This document shows positions 24,001 through 33,000 of a DNA stretch of 64,000 nucleotides, piece after piece (the first letter of the stretch is position 1; each line of letters opens with the position of its first letter). Location of the stretch: NCBI GenBank assembly GCA_050309605.1, contig JBNRMN010000002.1:1-64000 (forward strand), given 5' to 3'. The position numbers are program-made. This stretch comes from Anaerohalosphaeraceae bacterium. GTDB lineage: Bacteria; Planctomycetota; Phycisphaerae; Sedimentisphaerales; Anaerohalosphaeraceae.

Positions 24001-27000
24001 CACAACCGGTCGTTTCGAAACCGGACAGCCGTCCGGCGGATACGGTGTTTTTTTCCGGTACGACCGTCGCGGCCAAGCGAGTGTGCTATGTGGTGGACGG
24101 TTCGGGCAGTATGTTTGGGCTGATGTATCTGGTGCGCGAGCAGTTGCGTGAGTCGATTCTGAAATTGTCGGCCGAGCAGTCGTTTAATGTGGTGTTTTTT
24201 ATGGAAAACGGGCAGCTTTTGCAGGCGTTCGAGGGGACGCTTGAGAAGGCAAGCCCGTCGGCCAAGGCCGAGGCGCTGAATTTGCTCGGACGTATCCGGC
24301 CGGGAGGACAGACGATTGCCGAAGACGCGCTCGGGGCGGCTATGACGATGCGCGACAAAAGCGGACGCCGGGCGGAAGTGCTCTATTTTGTAACTGATGG
24401 GTTTGACCTGATGGACGGTGACGGTCAGGCGTTTATCCGACGGATTGACGCCCTTCGACAGTCGGTATCGCCGGGGACGGTCGTCCACACCATCGGCATC
24501 TATCCGGAAGCACGGGACAGCGGCATTCTGTCGCGATTGGCGCAGGTGTGCGGCGGGCGGTATATCGAGGTGAATTGAGTGCCCACCGGCATCGTGTTTT
24601 GCGCCAGGGGATGTGGCTGTTGTATTCATTGGCATGGGTTATCGCGATACTGGTTTGCGCGACGCCGGTTAAATGGGAGAAAAAGCAAATTTTTTAAGAA
24701 ATTATGTTTTTTTCCTGTAACGGAGGTATAATAGAAACGTCCTCTTAAACAGGATGAACAGGACTTTTTACAGGACATTCTATATCCATCAATTAAGGAG
24801 ACGGTTATGATATTTCCGAGAACCGGCATTATTGCATCCTTTTTTCTGATTTTTTCGATGGGTGCATTGGGGGATGTGCAATGGCTGCGTTATCGAACCA
24901 GTGAGGATGTGGGCCAGGAGGTGGGCGCCTCGGTGAACCGGTATTATCGCAGTTTTGAGTCGCAGCGTCCGGAGCACGTGCGGTGTCCGGAATTCAAATC
25001 CGACAGTCCCTTGTTTATTAAATGGAACACCCCGATGGACGGGCAGGGTTTTCGGTGGATCGCGTTGGATCGTTCGACGCCGTATGGACAATATGATCTG
25101 TTGTATATCGATTCAAACGGCGACGGGCATCTGGATGACGAGAAGCCGTATCAGGGGCGGCGAAGCGATCAGTATCGTATGGCCTTTCATCCGTTTCCTG
25201 TCTATCTGACCGGCGAGGACGGGCCGATTACCTATCATCTGGCGTGCCAATTCTACAGCTATGATGAGCGCAGTCGATATTTGATGATGTCTTCGGGCGG
25301 TTATTATGAAGGGACGGTGTTGATCGGCGGCGAACCGGTTGGGTGTGTTCTGGTGGATACCAACGGCAACGGGACGTTTGACGATACGGCTGAGGACTTT
25401 AACGCCGACCGGATTTTGCTGGGTGAAGGACAAAATCGGCGGGAGTATTTTGTGGGTCGCTATCTGGATTATGAAGGGACGTTGTATCGGCTTCAGATTG
25501 CACGCGACGGGGCGTTTGTGTCTCTTGCGGCTGCGCCCGACGTATCGTTTGGGGTCGTGCAGGTTCCCGAAGGTTTGACGAAATTCTCGGCCGGGGGTGT
25601 TAATGGAATGTATCACATGTCGCCGGAAAACGGGCACGTGCGCCTGCCGGAAGGGACGTATCGGGTGTATCAATGGGAGTTGGTTCGTCAGGACAAGGGG
25701 CAGGACTGGACCTTGCGGGGAAGCAATTTTCCGCGTCAGCAGAGTTTTACGGTCAGCGCCGATACGCCGGCGAGGGTGGCTGTCGGCGAGCCGGTATTTT
25801 CGCGGCTGTCGGTTTCCGAACGACAGGGAATCTATTCGATCAATCAGGAACTTCGGGGCAAGATGAACGAGCAGGTCAGTGTGCTGCGAAACGGTCGGCA
25901 GCCGCCGGCGCCGAAGGTGCATATTCGCAGCCAAACGGGCGCGTATGACCGGACGTTTTCGCTGGAGTATGGGTGAGGCGGTACCTGTTCGCTCTCGTGG
26001 CGAGAGCCGAGGAATATTGAGCGTCCGTATGTTATAACGCCGCTGGTCGAGGGGCCGTTTGATATACGGCAGATGCGCTATGTTTTTAAGCCGCTGCATC
26101 GTTCGGTACCGGTCGTCGGGCCGTGGATTGCCGAGGTTGCCGCCGATGAGGCGCTGCGCGTGGTGGTTGACGGTACGGGGCTGGTTGACCGTAACGGCGA
26201 CCGTTTGCCGGAGCATTTGACGCAAACCGAGACGCAGTGGATTGTATCGCAAGAGGAGGTGGGAGAAGGGCTTGTCTTTGATTTCGGCCAAGCGGTCGAG
26301 TTGGAAACGCTTCAAATCTGGAATTACAATGAGCCGGGCTATACATCGCGCGGCGTCGCGCAGGCGGATGTATCGGTCTGGACGTCTGAAGGCGACTGGA
26401 AGACGGTTTTGCGCGGCGCGTCGCTGCAAGAAGCCGAAGGGACAGACCAGTATGATGAGCCGACCCTGCTGAGGCTTGTCCCGACGCGGGCCGAGAAGGT
26501 GCGGCTGAGCAATCTTAAGCCGTTTGCCGATGAGGGGTTTGTCGGTTTGTCGGCGATCCGGTTTTATGAGAAGGCCACGTTGGCGGCCTGCAATCCGCAG
26601 CCGCCGGGAGGGGCATCGCTGCCGTTCAGTTCTCAGGCGACGTTGTTCTGGACGCCGGGTAAAGAGGCGGCTGCGTATGATGTGTACGCCGGAATCGACG
26701 GTCAAGAGCCGGCGTTTTTGGGTCGCATTGCGGAATCTCAGGTCAAACTGGTCGGGCTGGTCGGCGAACGAACATATCGGTGGCGCATTGATGCGGTACA
26801 AACGAATGGTACCGTTACGCAAGGGCCGCTGTGGTCGTTTTCGGTTGAGCCGGGCCGCTGTGTGGCGCATTGGCCGTTTGATGAACACGAAGGCCAAACG
26901 GCTGCCGATTCGCTCGGTCAGGCGGCCGGTGTGTTGAGAGGTGAACCGGCGTGGCTGATTGACGGCGGACGGATTGACGGGGCCATCGAGCTGGACGGTC

Positions 27001-30000: not shown

Positions 30001-33000
30001 GGTGCGCTGGCCGAGCGGTCGGTACAGGTCGTGCTGCTCAATGGCGAATCGACGGAACGTGAGCCGCTCGATGCGTGGCTGGCTGATTTTGACATTCCGT
30101 TCGTCTGCGGCGTTATCGCCATCGACCCCGATAATTCTCGATTTAATCTCGGCGTCCAGGCGATGCCGTGGCTGATTTTAACCGATGGTCAGCGCAAGGT
30201 CATTGCTGAAGGGTTTGCGCTGTCCGAATTGACTGATAAGCTGGGCGGACTGCAATAAGACGACAGCACAGCAGGGGTGTTTTATTCGGCTGTTGATGTG
30301 ATTATGTTCAGGGAGTTGAGATGAGACAATGGGTTGTTTTATGGGTCGCTTTCGCGGCGGCCGGGGCGATGGCGCTGACGGTTTCGGAGCAGACGCTTGA
30401 TCTGTTTGGTACGTCCGAGCCGGAGGATCCGAATGCCGTGGTTCTCGCTGATCCGCCCTACACCGTCAAGGTGTCGCGCACGGGCAAAGTGCTGAATGTG
30501 GCGATTGAGACCGCGTCGCGTGAGCAGGCGGAATTGCTGTTCGGCGCGCATTATGAACAGTCGCCGAGACTGTCGATTTATAAGGGCGATTTGCTGCTGG
30601 CATCGGGGCAGTTCGCCTTTGGGTGAGGCGGCGTCTGTGCGTACTCGTGGCGAGTACCGATGTATGCTTATGGCACATTCAGAATCGAGACGGAAGTGCC
30701 GACCGGCGAAGGCGAACCGATCCGCGTCGAGCCGACGACATATTATTTCAATCCGCTGTATCATGCGTCGGGGTTTGTCTATTTCGTTCCGGTTGCGGCG
30801 GCGTTTTTGTTCCTGAAAGAAAACCGGCGACCGAAGGCGTTTTTGATTCTGGCGCCAATGCTGCTGGTGATGGGGATGTGGAGAGGGTTTTCCGGAGTGA
30901 TGCATTTTCCTGAAGAGGCGGTCAGCATGTTAAATTCAGTGGTTATGGCCTTGCTGGCGGGCCTTTCCGTTGTCTGGCTTCTGGGTGAGCGGATCGGCCA
31001 TCGCCATCGGTTGGCAACGACTTTTCTGGCGGGCGGTATTATGCTGGGGTGCTGTGCCCTGATGCTGGTAGAAATCTTTTCCTCGGACTATGTGTTTCAA
31101 ATCGCATTTTTCGGTGTGATCAGTGCGGCGGTTATCCTGTCGGGCTTACTTGTCGGCGGTTTCCTGAGCCGGAAGCGATTTGGCCCGGTGCGTTTTTTGC
31201 TATGGTTCGGTGTGGGCATTTTATCGGCGACTTTTGTGCTGTTTTTTGTTTATTATGCGATTTTGACATTTTCCTATTTCAGTGCAGATTTGTTCTGGAT
31301 GTTGTTGGGCGTGATGCTGACTTATGCCGCAATCTATTGGGTAGGCGTCTTGCCGTTTCTGGTGCTGTTTTTCGTCAATGACTTTTGGCGGCAGCGGTTT
31401 ACGGCGGTCATGGGATTGGGCACTGTAGCCGTATCCGAGACGGAAGCTCACGAGGCGTTTACGTCTGACTTCTGATCGCCCAGTTCCGTCGGTTCGTCCA
31501 GCAGGGTGGCCGGCTTCAGTGCGCCGGGGCCGCATTTTGTGCATTCCAGACAGCGGATGCAGTGGTCGGCGTTGGGGGTCTTATCGGGCTGGACGCCGTA
31601 GCGGCACAGGGTTCGACAGCGGCCGCATTGGGTGCATTGGTGTTCTTCCAGGTTCAGTGTAAACAGAGAAAACCGATTGAAAAAGCCGAAAATCGCACCC
31701 AGCGGGCACAGAATTCGACACCACGGGCGGATGGTAAAAAAGATGGCGGCGACAAAGACGACGATGATGGTGATTTTGAGGGTGTTGGGCCAGGGGATTA
31801 CGTCGCCGGCGACGGCGGCGGAAACCACATCGGGCAGGGCCTTTTCCAGCCCGCCGGCCGGGCAGATACGGCAGATAAACAGCGGGTGGCCTTCGCCGAA
31901 AAAGTAGGGGACGGCCAGGACTGTCCCGATCAGTACGACATAGCGAAAATGCCCCATCCAGCGGGGGATTTTGAAACGCGGCGCGGGGACCTTGGCCGCG
32001 ACATCCTGAAGCAGGCCGAACGGACACATCCAGCCGCACACCAGCGAGCCGAGCATCACGCCGAACGCGATCAGCAGTCCCACGGCAAAATACGGAAACA
32101 GGTGCAGCGCACTGAATTGGGCAATGACGCCGATGGGGCAGCCGAACAAGGCCAGCGGACAGGCATAGCAATGGAACACCGGTCCGCACACGGTGTGCAT
32201 CCGCAACCCGAACGGATCGAGCCAGACCAGCAAAAAACCCGTCTGTACCCACAGCCGATGCGGCAGGAGTTTTTTGAAAAACCGCGACAGCGGCGATGAC
32301 GATGAATTGACCGTGGACACCACAGCCTCCTTTAACTGCCTCAGGTCGGGCAGGCTTCGGGGGGCTTGCCCGTGTAGGTTAACTGCAATCGACCGTCGTC
32401 GGTACGCTCCAGCCCGCCGATGCTGACTTCCTTCATCAGCCGCGTTTCGGGCGTGGCCAACCCTTTGTCGTTGTGTTCCGAAAAGACCGGCTGCGTGTGA
32501 AACTTCAGCCCGAAGGCCATCAGGCCGGCGCCGATAAACAGCAGCACAAATACGATTTTGATCTTGAAGGACTCCATAATATTTACGCTATCATAGCACA
32601 CCGGAATGTATTTGTAAACAGCGTTTGGCGTACAAAATGATTGGCGGCCAGTCAGGATCGGCAGCCAAATAAAAACGCCCGCGGACTTTGTCAGCGGGCG
32701 TTTGAGGCTGTATCTAAAAAGACTTATGTTGTCGGTTTGATTTCCAGCGGATGGGCGTTTTGATATTGTTCCTGCATTCGACTGGTGGTGATATGCGTAT
32801 AAATCTGGGTTGTCGATAACGATTGGTGTCCCAGCAGTTCCTGAACGCTTCGCAGGTCGGCACCGTTGTTGAGCATATGGGTCGCGAAGCTGTGCCGCAG
32901 CGTGTGCGGGCTGATGTTCGGGTCCAGACCCGCCTCGATGAGGTATTTGTCCATTTTTCGGCGGACGCTGCGGGCACTCATCCGTTTGCCGTGCTTGTTG

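Follow-up and report, generated by a model that had tools for sequence, protein, structure and literature searches.

An undescribed family of predicted selenoproteins with a Sec-x3-Cys motif on an Ig-like domain in Sedimentisphaerales

The selenoprotein genes and their neighbours

The window, the whole stretch of DNA that was analysed, covers positions 1-64,000 of contig JBNRMN010000002.1 (GCA_050309605.1) from an Anaerohalosphaeraceae bacterium of the order Sedimentisphaerales. It contains two genes, designated gene A and gene B. A third copy is on contig 34. The motif (Y/F)G-U-G-(G/S)-x-C with one in-frame TGA is common to all three, and the window translations and the contig-34 sequence agree on this point with the preliminary description. 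Judged from their sequences, all three are predicted selenoproteins of an undescribed family, with bacterial SECIS elements. The features are as follows.

24807..27695, + strand: gene A, 962-aa predicted selenoprotein, read-through translation with a single internal TGA
25770..26123, + strand: Sec domain of gene A, putative Ig-like beta-sandwich (profile match 1-121, E 6.9e-52)
25974..25976, + strand: predicted Sec codon UGA of gene A, U390 (LEYGUGGTCSLSWREP)
25991..26007, + strand: predicted SECIS hairpin of gene A, 7-bp stem GCUCUCG/CGAGAGC, loop UGG
26226..26519, + strand: discoidin-like (F5/8 type C) region of gene A, weak match to Pfam PF00754 F5_F8_type_C (E 0.0021, aa 474-571)
26994..27452, + strand: Laminin_G_3 (concanavalin-like lectin) domain of gene A, Pfam PF13385 (E 1.2e-19, aa 730-882)
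27624..27680, + strand: putative C-terminal hydrophobic anchor of gene A (ILPVLVIVALIAAAAVVLG), from the translation
27754..30258, + strand: middle gene, 834 aa, five CarboxypepD_reg beta-sandwich repeats (Pfam PF13620, E 2.3e-58)
30321..31475, + strand: gene B, 384-aa predicted selenoprotein, one internal TGA; the end coordinate includes the TGA stop
30438..30785, + strand: Sec domain of gene B (profile match E 2.1e-51)
30624..30626, + strand: predicted Sec codon UGA of gene B, U102 (FAFGUGGVCAYSWRVP)
30641..30657, + strand: predicted SECIS hairpin of gene B, GUACUCG-UGG-CGAGUAC
30756..31376, + strand: seven-helix membrane domain of gene B (model helices 146-352)
31448..32323, - strand: NapH/MauN-type membrane polyferredoxin, Pfam Fer4_5, two CX3CP and two 4Fe-4S motifs
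contig 34: third copy, with a TGA (MEYGUGSTCRYSWRVP)

Gene A is composed of a signal peptide, an N-terminal region of ~330 aa, the Sec domain, the discoidin-like region, Laminin_G_3, and a C-terminal membrane anchor. We infer the Ig-like fold of its Sec domain from the model of the paralogous domain. The orthologues of gene A, ~930-980 aa long, have the TGA at the same place and score higher than gene A itself in the discoidin-like region. From this context, gene A would encode a glycan-binding, membrane-anchored protein presenting a Sec-Cys centre.

The model of gene B consists of an N-terminal helix, a sandwich, and seven transmembrane helices. Full-length relatives of gene B, with one TGA each, were found in 126 of 401 genomes of Sedimentisphaerales. 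In the alignment of 34 homologues, the membrane domain has no conserved Cys or His (0-7 Cys per domain). Basic residues are on alternate loops, and the motifs KENR, ERIGNRNRF, RKRFGPVRF, and FWRxRF are kept; these conserved basic motifs are probably on the cytoplasmic side. The membrane domain showed no match to transporter families.

A tblastn homologue of the middle gene neighbours 17 of 73 related loci (L024-L096), including L093, L095, and L096, and one version of this repeat protein (G066) has a Thioredoxin_8 domain. The polyferredoxin gene is convergent with gene B, and their ends overlap by 28 nt. It matches NCBIfam TIGR02163 at E 2.7e-18, under the cut-off of that model, and is adjacent in 14 of the 73 related loci with 61-87% identity. 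It may be an unrelated housekeeping gene, since its conservation greatly exceeds that of the selenoproteins. The repeat protein and the polyferredoxin alongside are candidate partners and could be an electron source.

The contig-34 copy adjoins selAB, on the strand opposite to selA. It had been given as an 86-aa gene. The Sec motif and the hairpin stand, but this extent does not: the N-terminal 45 residues are unconserved even within the genus, so the start is uncertain, and the gene is a truncated form of a protein class of roughly 215 aa. Judged from its context, it would be a shortened version of the small anchored form usually found beside selAB. It is possible, though doubtful, that the copy is non-working, either as a decaying remnant or as a short frame with UGA and SECIS retained for, e.g., sensing Sec-decoding capacity. 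Comparison with a genome of the same genus revealed conservation only from M-E-Y-G-U onward, with an ATG right there; short forms of 45-99 aa recur next to selA in other genomes, and a domain copy lies within 1.5 kb at 17 of 30 selA loci. Against this, the conserved part preserves reading frame, Sec codon, and hairpin and is followed by a terminator-like hairpin and a T-run; in other genomes, the corresponding place is taken by full-length, N-terminally anchored forms of ~215 aa. Also against this reading, the copy cannot be a leader of the selA mRNA, being on the strand opposite to selA.

UGA decoding and the downstream hairpin

The genome search revealed complete Sec machinery: a tRNA-Sec at 74.4 bits, and selA, selB, and selD above their cut-offs. 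TGA also acts as a stop in this genome, and gene B itself terminates on one. The Sec column holds TGA in 79 of the 82 domain copies that were extracted from related genomes.

In all three genes, a 7-bp hairpin begins 14 nt past the TGA, and the sequences GCTCTCG-TGG-CGAGAGC, GTACTCG-TGG-CGAGTAC, and GGTACTCG-TGG-CGAGTGCC are exactly as earlier reported. Pairing is kept in 99.6% of 518 cells, and compensatory changes on both sides are observed at five of the seven pairs. None of 500 shuffles equalled this value, and slid controls paired in 22-56% of cells. The compensatory changes claimed before are thus established as formal covariation.

Residues shift together with the stem (SWR to RWP, SWR to LWQ, and Y..V to H..V). 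It is mostly the SECIS RNA that dictates the S and R of SWR; they are not protein invariants. Among G, U, G, C, S, W, R, and P, all proposed as invariant, the downstream Cys is indeed invariant in 65 aligned domains, but S and R are not, being replaced by R..P or L..Q following the stem. Third-codon-position identity over codons +5 to +10 is 0.94-1.0 in class A and 0.68-1.0 in class B, compared with 0.24-0.55 at the invariant codons for G, P, Y, and R that flank this stretch. Synonymous-site conservation peaks exactly over stem codons +5 to +10.

The bSECIS model described in PMC13188914 has a loop of 3-9 nt that carries G in its first two positions, and a spacing of 16-37 nt. The family hairpins agree with this model in their UGG loop, 7-8 bp stem, and spacing of 21 nt from UGA to loop (24 nt in the one-codon-longer variant). 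As in the consensus given there, the hairpin is placed straight after the UGA, and its 3-nt loop has G second and then G. It differs in its marked compactness and in a sequence that hardly varies within the family. The gene A hairpin, with a UGA-to-loop distance of 21 nt, has an MFE of -9.4 kcal/mol. The minimal stem of gene B has -7.2 kcal/mol, against -7.5 in the model of PMC13188914, unless the lower stem is counted (-11.8 kcal/mol).

These are considered real selenoprotein genes because the TGA column is kept, the hairpin covaries, synonymous sites are conserved at the stem, and the Sec machinery is complete. SelB and tRNA-Sec would decode the UGA, aided by the 7-bp UGG-loop hairpin 14 nt downstream, which is formed by the same codons that specify the residues (L/Y)-S-W-R-(E/V).

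Distribution and Cys forms

Our scan found the domain in 149 of 401 genomes of Sedimentisphaerales, with TGA in 148 of the 150 domain matches listed, in line with the earlier report of widespread matches with an in-frame TGA. Within the order, the family is present in 115 of 116 selA-positive genomes versus 34 of 285 genomes without a selA match.

The search of a representative protein library yielded 833 matches at E<=1e-3. The best 150 of these 833 proteins contain 147 domain matches; 88 stop right at the Sec column, the pattern that genes miscalled at the UGA would give, and 58 span it. None of the best 150 of 833 begins just past the column. Library matches had been described as broken at the UGA on both sides; among these best 150, this holds for the ends, but not for the starts.

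Five full-length database homologues had been described as having G, P, or N, not Cys, at the Sec column. Cys homologues do exist: 10 of the 58 column-spanning proteins, among the same best 150 of 833, have G-C-x-x-x-C. The Cys forms also include the G472 form. The only Sec-to-Cys change found in the order is at L028, whose gene has an in-frame TAA. One subgroup has the spacing U-x4-C instead of U-x3-C. Some paralogues are without both Sec and Cys, and pair-less versions are fused to BlaR1-type and kinase sensors; therefore, the domain also has non-redox uses.

Three Cys forms (P0025, P0041, and P0155, with P0085 as a cluster-mate) have a C-terminal AhpC-TSA/Redoxin domain. P0027 has it too, yet its domains are without C-x3-C. 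The redoxin domain of these four proteins (P0025, P0041, P0155, and P0027) has a C-x-x-C site (F-F-C-x-C-G-L-C), and one source record labels its protein as a peroxiredoxin family protein. The fusion of Cys forms to CxxC redoxin domains indicates thiol chemistry.

Fold, proposed function, and relation to known systems

The Sec domain of gene B was modelled with pLDDT 84.1 and pTM 0.77, showing seven strands and one helix. In this model, the loop that joins two strands holds U63, and the next strand begins with C67, suggesting that the fold is a generic Ig-like sandwich and that Sec occupies a hairpin loop. The structural matches are generic Ig-like domains only, with the best Z of 9.5-10.2, and the fold is therefore uninformative on chemistry.

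The shared unit would be an extracytoplasmic Ig-like beta-sandwich of ~100 residues, with Sec in a tight hairpin loop and the invariant Cys four residues past it (G-U-G-G-x-C). Sec and Cys would form a redox-active selenylsulfide, swapping electrons with thiol/disulfide partners in the envelope. In this it would act like an Ig-like redox domain whose Cys pair works with thioredoxin-fold proteins. An extracytoplasmic selenylsulfide redox centre is the likely function. In gene B, as its context suggests, the Sec-Cys centre would be coupled to a seven-helix membrane protein. The joint reading, which comprises a new Sec family, SECIS decoding, an envelope selenylsulfide redox centre, and the proposed roles of the three genes, is considered quite probable.

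In favour of the redox reading are the invariant downstream Cys, the C-x3-C forms, the redoxin fusions, the Thioredoxin_8 domain of the G066 repeat protein, and the neighbouring polyferredoxin. The U-x3-C spacing differs from the classic redox spacing, a point against the redox reading.

DsbD-alpha is an N-terminal extracytoplasmic Ig-like domain with a two-residue redox pair, tied to a polytopic membrane domain. DsbD works with thioredoxin-fold CxxC partners, and its membrane domain has a conserved Cys pair. The family is similar in its extracytoplasmic beta-sandwich, proposed redox pair, polytopic membrane domain, and thioredoxin-fold CxxC domain fused in Cys forms. It is different in having U/C-x3-C in a hairpin loop, Sec for Cys, no Pfam match, and seven helices. 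As the gene B membrane domain has no conserved Cys or His (none of its 0-7 Cys is conserved in 34 sequences), it provides no electron relay of the DsbD type. DsbD is absent among the structural matches listed, which are generic Ig-like domains.

SoxY is a periplasmic Ig-like protein whose reactive Cys is in a Gly-rich C-terminal motif without a partner Cys, the Gly-Cys-Gly carrier arm. The family has in common with SoxY the Ig-like fold, the periplasmic location, and a reactive chalcogen residue in a glycine-rich stretch. Unlike the C-terminal Cys motif of SoxY, the Sec motif lies inside the protein, with ~50 to ~570 residues after it, and is accompanied by an invariant Cys at +4. By structure, SoxYZ is matched weakly (Foldseek E 0.037, rank 37).

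A possible likeness of the glycine-rich Sec setting to the carrier arm would fit a different role, in which the Sec-Cys pair is not a redox relay but a binding or carrier site, either for a soft metal or metalloid or for a covalent sulfur or selenium adduct. The cluster would then handle metal or acquire selenium or sulfur in the envelope. The family genes are near selA, selB, and selD, and CrdA (Z 8.7, 17% identity), HftA and P19 (Z 7.8-8.1), and SoxYZ (at the E value above) are among the generic structural matches. According to PMC13188914, a specific, high-affinity system for selenium transport is still to be identified in prokaryotes. Such a role is rather unlikely. The CrdA, HftA, P19, and SoxYZ matches equal those to unrelated Ig-like domains at the same Z, the membrane domain is without a transporter-family match, and the redoxin fusions of the Cys forms point to thiol chemistry.

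It is very improbable that the TGAs are plain stops or breaks, with the six called pieces being separate genes or pseudogenes, or that an altered code assigns TGA to Gly or Trp. Gene callers split these genes, and some database proteins have G or W at the Sec column, but these readings are contradicted by a single TGA that hundreds of genes share at the same conserved column, flanked by conserved protein on either side, by the covarying RNA hairpin and the full Sec machinery, by the use of TGA as a terminator in this genome, and by the co-occurrence with selA.

Two listed families have similar short motifs. NF049953, the "hypothetical protein DG" selenoprotein reported with deep-Sep in PMC12013277, shares the G-U-x-G motif and, like the domain described here, lacked earlier domain annotation. 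DUF1573 (PF07610), listed with a UGC motif in Table 1 of PMC13188914, is likewise a predicted selenoprotein that has a short Sec-Gly motif and no thioredoxin fold; its Sec-to-Cys spacing differs. That the domain belongs to either has a negligible probability, as the likeness to these entries in the review table (PMC13188914) is in the short motif only, PF07610 gave no match at E<=1, and NF049953 matched neither the proteins at E<=1 nor anything in the genome, the latter as found before.

Thioredoxin-fold selenoproteins are the majority class according to PMC13188914; the domain falls outside this class (UxxC/CxxU) by its modelled beta-sandwich and its spacing of U-x3-C (U-x4-C in one subgroup). 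No Pfam or NCBIfam family matched the domain at E<=1 in our profile searches, in agreement with the preliminary description, and the domain is absent from the 119 selenoprotein families in Table 1 of the 2026 review (PMC13188914). The TGA column, the hairpin covariation, the beta-sandwich model, and the lack of a curated-family match together support the initial proposal of an undescribed selenoprotein family with U-x-x-x-C on a predicted Ig-like fold. In the order Sedimentisphaerales, this Sec-Ig-like family seems to be the chief user of selenium-based translation.

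Genes, neighbourhood and predicted fold

By six-frame search, the region shared by these genes is present in exactly three copies in the genome. Two are in the window, and the third is on contig 34, where the motif is MEYG-U-GSTCRYSWRVP (U, selenocysteine, Sec). The features of the window are as follows.

24807-27695 (+): gene A; a single protein of 962 aa when TGA is translated as Sec; sole internal TGA at 25974-25976, in the motif LEYG-U-GGTCSLSWREP. From the N-terminus on, the protein has a signal-like segment, ~330 aa that match no family, the Sec domain, a weak discoidin-like match, Laminin_G_3, and an anchor at the C-terminus
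Between genes A and B: gene for an 834-aa protein with five CarboxypepD_reg repeats
30321-31475 (+): gene B; 384 aa; internal TGA at 30624-30626, in the motif FAFG-U-GGVCAYSWRVP; terminates at an ordinary TGA stop
31448-31475: last 28 nt of gene B, overlapped tail to tail by a convergent gene (-) for a NapH/MauN-type polyferredoxin
32724-33734 (-): XerC/XerD-type tyrosine recombinase gene, ~400 bp past the polyferredoxin gene

The gaps among gene A, the repeat protein gene, and gene B are ~60 nt. The same four genes are found together in three other genomes annotated over 20 kb (loci L093, L095, and L096). The polyferredoxin gene, with 61-87% identity, adjoins the family in 14 of 73 loci. In L095:8863-10185 (genome G066), the repeat protein of the cluster is shorter, 441 aa, and has a C-terminal Thioredoxin_8 domain (E = 3.6e-6). 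In L093:3281-9710 (G052, a complete genome), the genes immediately before the cluster encode an ECF sigma factor, a FecR-type anti-sigma protein, and three sulfatases.

The N-terminal region of gene A and the Sec domain form a unit that is observed in three settings in related genomes: alone (~480 aa), with a lectin tail (~950 aa), and before a seven-helix domain (~690 aa). In the Atlas search, every match to the N-terminal region was an unnamed cluster from planctomycetes, 287-393 aa in length. Among them, the 386- and 393-aa "Fragment" entries may represent these very proteins, truncated at the UGA. The membrane domain of gene B had no usable match in the Atlas search.

The preliminary description had proposed an Ig-like fold for the Sec domain, and modeling agrees with it. 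The model of 116 aa, based on a 65-row alignment, is a seven-strand sandwich with one helix (pLDDT 84.1, pTM 0.77). Strands 52-58 and 66-72 are connected by the loop that holds Sec (residue 63), with the invariant Cys (67) at the beginning of the latter strand. The full model of gene B (pLDDT 80.6) shows an N-terminal helix (2-27), the sandwich (47-143), and seven helices (146-352). Structure searches with both models (Foldseek, VIA) returned only generic Ig/FN3-like domains, with the best Z of 9.5-10.2; thus, the fold class is confirmed and no specific relative is indicated. The membrane part of gene B gave a single row (Z 7.8, rmsd 7.0). Because conserved basic motifs are present on every second loop of gene B, the positive-inside rule places the Sec domain probably outside the cytoplasm.

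Decoding of the UGA codon and the downstream hairpin

The genome encodes a tRNA-Sec (74.4 bits, over the Rfam threshold) and selA, selB, and selD, each exceeding its curated cut-off. The profile of the three domains matched 149 of 401 genomes of the same order, with 647 matches in total and up to 11 per genome. By our count, a TGA is present in 148 of the 150 domain matches listed, and where a second stop is listed, it is, in the cases examined (221-aa forms), the end of the gene itself. Relatives of the whole 384-aa protein are found in 126 of the 401 genomes at 21-39% identity, nearly all with one TGA. Among 82 domain copies from fetched loci, the Sec column is TGA in 79, TGT in one (L028), TTA in one (L083), and aberrant in one. 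Both exceptions with a sense codon are orthologues of gene A with an intact hairpin: L028 (G314) has TGT (Cys) and an in-frame TAA upstream, and L083:1355-1357 (G160) has TTA (Leu). Either recent loss or misassembly may account for these codon changes.

All three genes have, starting 14 nt past the TGA, a SECIS candidate: a perfectly paired stem of 7 or 8 bp closed by a UGG loop. It fits the bacterial SECIS model published in PMC13188914 (Fig. 2 legend), with the UGG loop, 7-8 bp, and a spacing of 21 nt; a subgroup that has an additional residue (U-G-G-S-W-C) shows a spacing of 24 nt. Energies of the minimal stems are -9.4 kcal/mol (gene A) and -7.2 kcal/mol (gene B; -11.8 including the lower stem). 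The folding energy of 60-nt windows is not better than that of shuffles (z -0.9 to +0.75), and the case for the hairpin therefore rests on comparison, not on energy.

The comparison included 74 distinct stretches of 51 nt, each from the TGA on. Pairing in the 7-bp helix is kept in 99.6% of 518 cells, and both sides have changed at five of the seven pairs. Column shuffles reached any of five measures in none of 500 cases, and sliding the 3' arm by 1-3 columns left pairing at only 22-56%. As the aligned sequences are related, separate change events were also counted. They are CUC..GAG versus UAC..GUA between the two main classes (A and B), CAC..GUG in L073 and L079, CCGG..CCGG in L038 and L045, UUG..CAA in L091, and UAU..AUA in L089. 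These changes rewrite the protein, from S-W-R to R-W-P or L-W-Q and from Y..V to H..V, always in pairs that keep the stem. The third positions of codons +5 to +10, compared between sequences sharing the amino acid, are identical at 0.94-1.0 in class A (31 genes) and 0.68-1.0 in class B (31 genes). For the flanking invariant Gly, Pro, Tyr, and Arg codons the identity is just 0.24-0.55. At the level of sequence, this comparative evidence shows recoding of the UGA as Sec with the help of the hairpin.

Scanning the whole genome for any TGA followed by a generic hairpin containing G was uninformative because of the high GC content, with 518 sites returned. A narrower scan, for a CG-TG(G/T)-CG apex, yielded 35 hairpins, of which 13 have a TGA no more than 30 nt 5' of them. 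A 7-bp stem together with a TGA 17 nt 5' of the scanned 5-nt arm (14 nt 5' of the 7-bp stem) occurs at the three known sites alone. At 17495-17540 (+) in the window, a TGA is followed 20 nt on by a hairpin with a 7-bp stem and a CG-TGG-CG apex (TCGCCGCG-TGG-CGTGGCGG). This site looks non-coding, in an apparent gap between minus-strand ORFs at 16940-17464 and 17507-18094, and may be due to chance.

Novelty, distribution and relatives without Sec

The Sec domain matches no Pfam or NCBIfam family (June 2026 release) at E <= 1, and NF049953 (GUxG) has no match in the genome, as had been described. A profile search against solved structures gave no matches at E <= 10. Table 1 of a 2026 review (PMC13188914) contains 119 prokaryotic selenoprotein families and subfamilies. 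No matching family is found in that table, to which the supplements could add candidates. In passages of deep-Sep (PMC12013277) and BSepDB (PMC13326102), planctomycetes are not mentioned; their supplements also could add candidates. The literature search found no paper pairing "selenoproteome" with "Planctomycetota", and among the 25 top matches listed, none linked this order or its class by name to selenocysteine or to selenoproteins. The conserved TGA column, the covarying hairpin, the Sec machinery, and the lack of a known family make it well supported that this is a real, undescribed selenoprotein family, as initially proposed.

A profile of 65 domains was compared with 1.84 billion representative proteins, and 833 proteins matched at E <= 1e-3, 58 of them at E <= 1e-10. 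The best 150 of the 833 were re-scanned locally and gave 147 domain matches. In 88 of these, the match ends at the Sec column, which is also the end of the protein; these are gene calls cut at the UGA. The other group, 58 proteins, spans the column. Only G, P, or N had been noted at this column in homologues; this is contradicted by 10 of the 58 spanning proteins, which have Cys (G-C-x-x-x-C). Several others have G or W and keep the SECIS-type residues, most likely originating from pipelines that read TGA by another code. Other members of the 58 have neither Sec nor Cys.

In the Cys forms, S and R of the SWR motif are free, (T/L/S)-W-(K/R/E/Q/P), and one planctomycete Cys form has S-Y-A-G-K-M-P at the corresponding stretch. 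Trp is kept in most forms, including those without the Sec/Cys pair. Thus, Trp is mainly a protein constraint, and S and R mainly RNA constraints. The motif G,U,G,C,S,W,R,P had been called invariant; its S and R are largely an RNA imprint that changes in stem-keeping pairs.

Full-length gene B relatives without Sec or Cys are found in L084 (G328:C494) and L085:2127-3143 (G392:C1) (MFQHSVNGRFTYLWRIP; RFERSSGFSYRWHVP), and both keep the membrane domain. A BlaR1-type M56 peptidase and a Ser/Thr protein kinase (the database proteins P0035 and P0124) carry the pair-less domain C-terminally, suggesting its use as an extracytoplasmic sensor module. These fusions show the sandwich to be a general envelope module, to which the Sec/Cys hairpin is an added function.

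In a phylum-wide sample, 31 of 391 genomes match; 28 of the 31 are outside the class, mostly with one TGA. No match was found in 15 genomes from four other families of the same class. Within the order, selA was matched (E <= 1e-40) in 116 of 401 genomes, and the family is present in 115 of the 116, a co-occurrence that is a description rather than a test since kin are not independent. Of the 285 genomes lacking a selA match, 34 have the family, and many of these are incomplete or have weak matches. G263:C1, the single contig of a ~90% complete genome, has gene B relatives with an in-frame TGA and no selA match at that threshold.

A domain copy is present within the 1.5-kb flanks in 17 of 30 selA loci. 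The contig-34 copy is 270 bp upstream of selA on the opposite strand, and coordinates show the same arrangement in, for example, G126, G350, G295, G351, G329, G228, G399, G136, and G027. In G270, selAB adjoin several family genes. In G048, a selD-AhpD fusion gene (L096:2994-4676; carboxymuconolactone-decarboxylase/AhpD-type domain) adjoins the polyferredoxin gene of the cluster. Its homologue in the present genome, outside the window, is a 575-aa open frame containing selD (G000:C64:22338-23945) that adjoins the tRNA-Sec gene.

The selA-adjacent class is normally ~215 aa, anchored N-terminally and ending in the Sec domain. Several genomes have only short selA-adjacent forms of 45-99 aa, and the contig-34 gene, a truncated copy, is one of them. 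Its reading frame, Sec codon, and hairpin are retained, and a terminator-like hairpin and a T-run follow. The 86 aa originally assigned to it are uncertain, because conservation with a same-genus genome starts only at M-E-Y-G-U, where an ATG is present. The gene may make a ~50-aa product in which Sec comes early; alternatively, it may be a remnant.

Possible function and significance

For the function of the family, we infer a selenylsulfide between Sec and the Cys four residues on, exposed at a hairpin tip, which could take part in extracytoplasmic chemistry of the thiol/disulfide (or peroxide) type. The main argument for this is that Cys relatives carry redoxin domains. P0025, P0041, and P0155 (with the cluster-mate P0085) have a signal peptide, a common small pre-domain, the C-x3-C domain, and then an AhpC-TSA/Redoxin domain with a C-x-x-C site (F-F-C-x-C-G-L-C). 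In P0027, this redoxin domain is also present, and neither of the two copies of the sandwich domain in this protein has C-x3-C. One source names its protein "peroxiredoxin family protein". A thiol/disulfide-type redox role is the reading proposed here, tentatively and at somewhat less than even probability. A role in binding or carrying a metal or chalcogen is distinctly less likely, and the remaining probability belongs to roles other than redox or binding and carriage.

Under the redox reading, if electrons cross the membrane, the NapH-type protein is a candidate supplier from its neighbourhood. A DsbD-like membrane relay by gene B was dropped, because the membrane domain has no conserved Cys. 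It is improbable, and no better than a long shot, that the family, selA, selB, selD, and the NapH-type polyferredoxin constitute a "selenium island". The envelope selenoproteins of such an island would capture or reduce selenium (or polysulfide) from the surroundings and hand it on into the cell, with gene B as the membrane step; the small selA-adjacent form and the recurrent 45-99-aa truncations, in which the UGA comes early, would signal the status of selenium or of Sec decoding. If true, it would be the first dedicated prokaryotic selenium-acquisition apparatus.

Known bacterial selenoproteins are mostly cytoplasmic thioredoxin-fold or metal-cofactor enzymes, and in their families Cys forms usually far outnumber Sec forms. 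In contrast, the family here appears to belong to the cell envelope, has an Ig-like fold, and within its order is almost always in the Sec form, with up to 11 copies per genome. In public databases, its Sec UGA truncates hundreds of gene calls, and a family model would repair these annotations. The paired changes of S..R to R..P or L..Q, with the SECIS stem kept, are a clean natural case of an RNA signal written into a protein motif. As it is present in nearly all selA-positive genomes sampled, the family may be the reason that the anaerobic polysaccharide degraders of this order retain the Sec trait.
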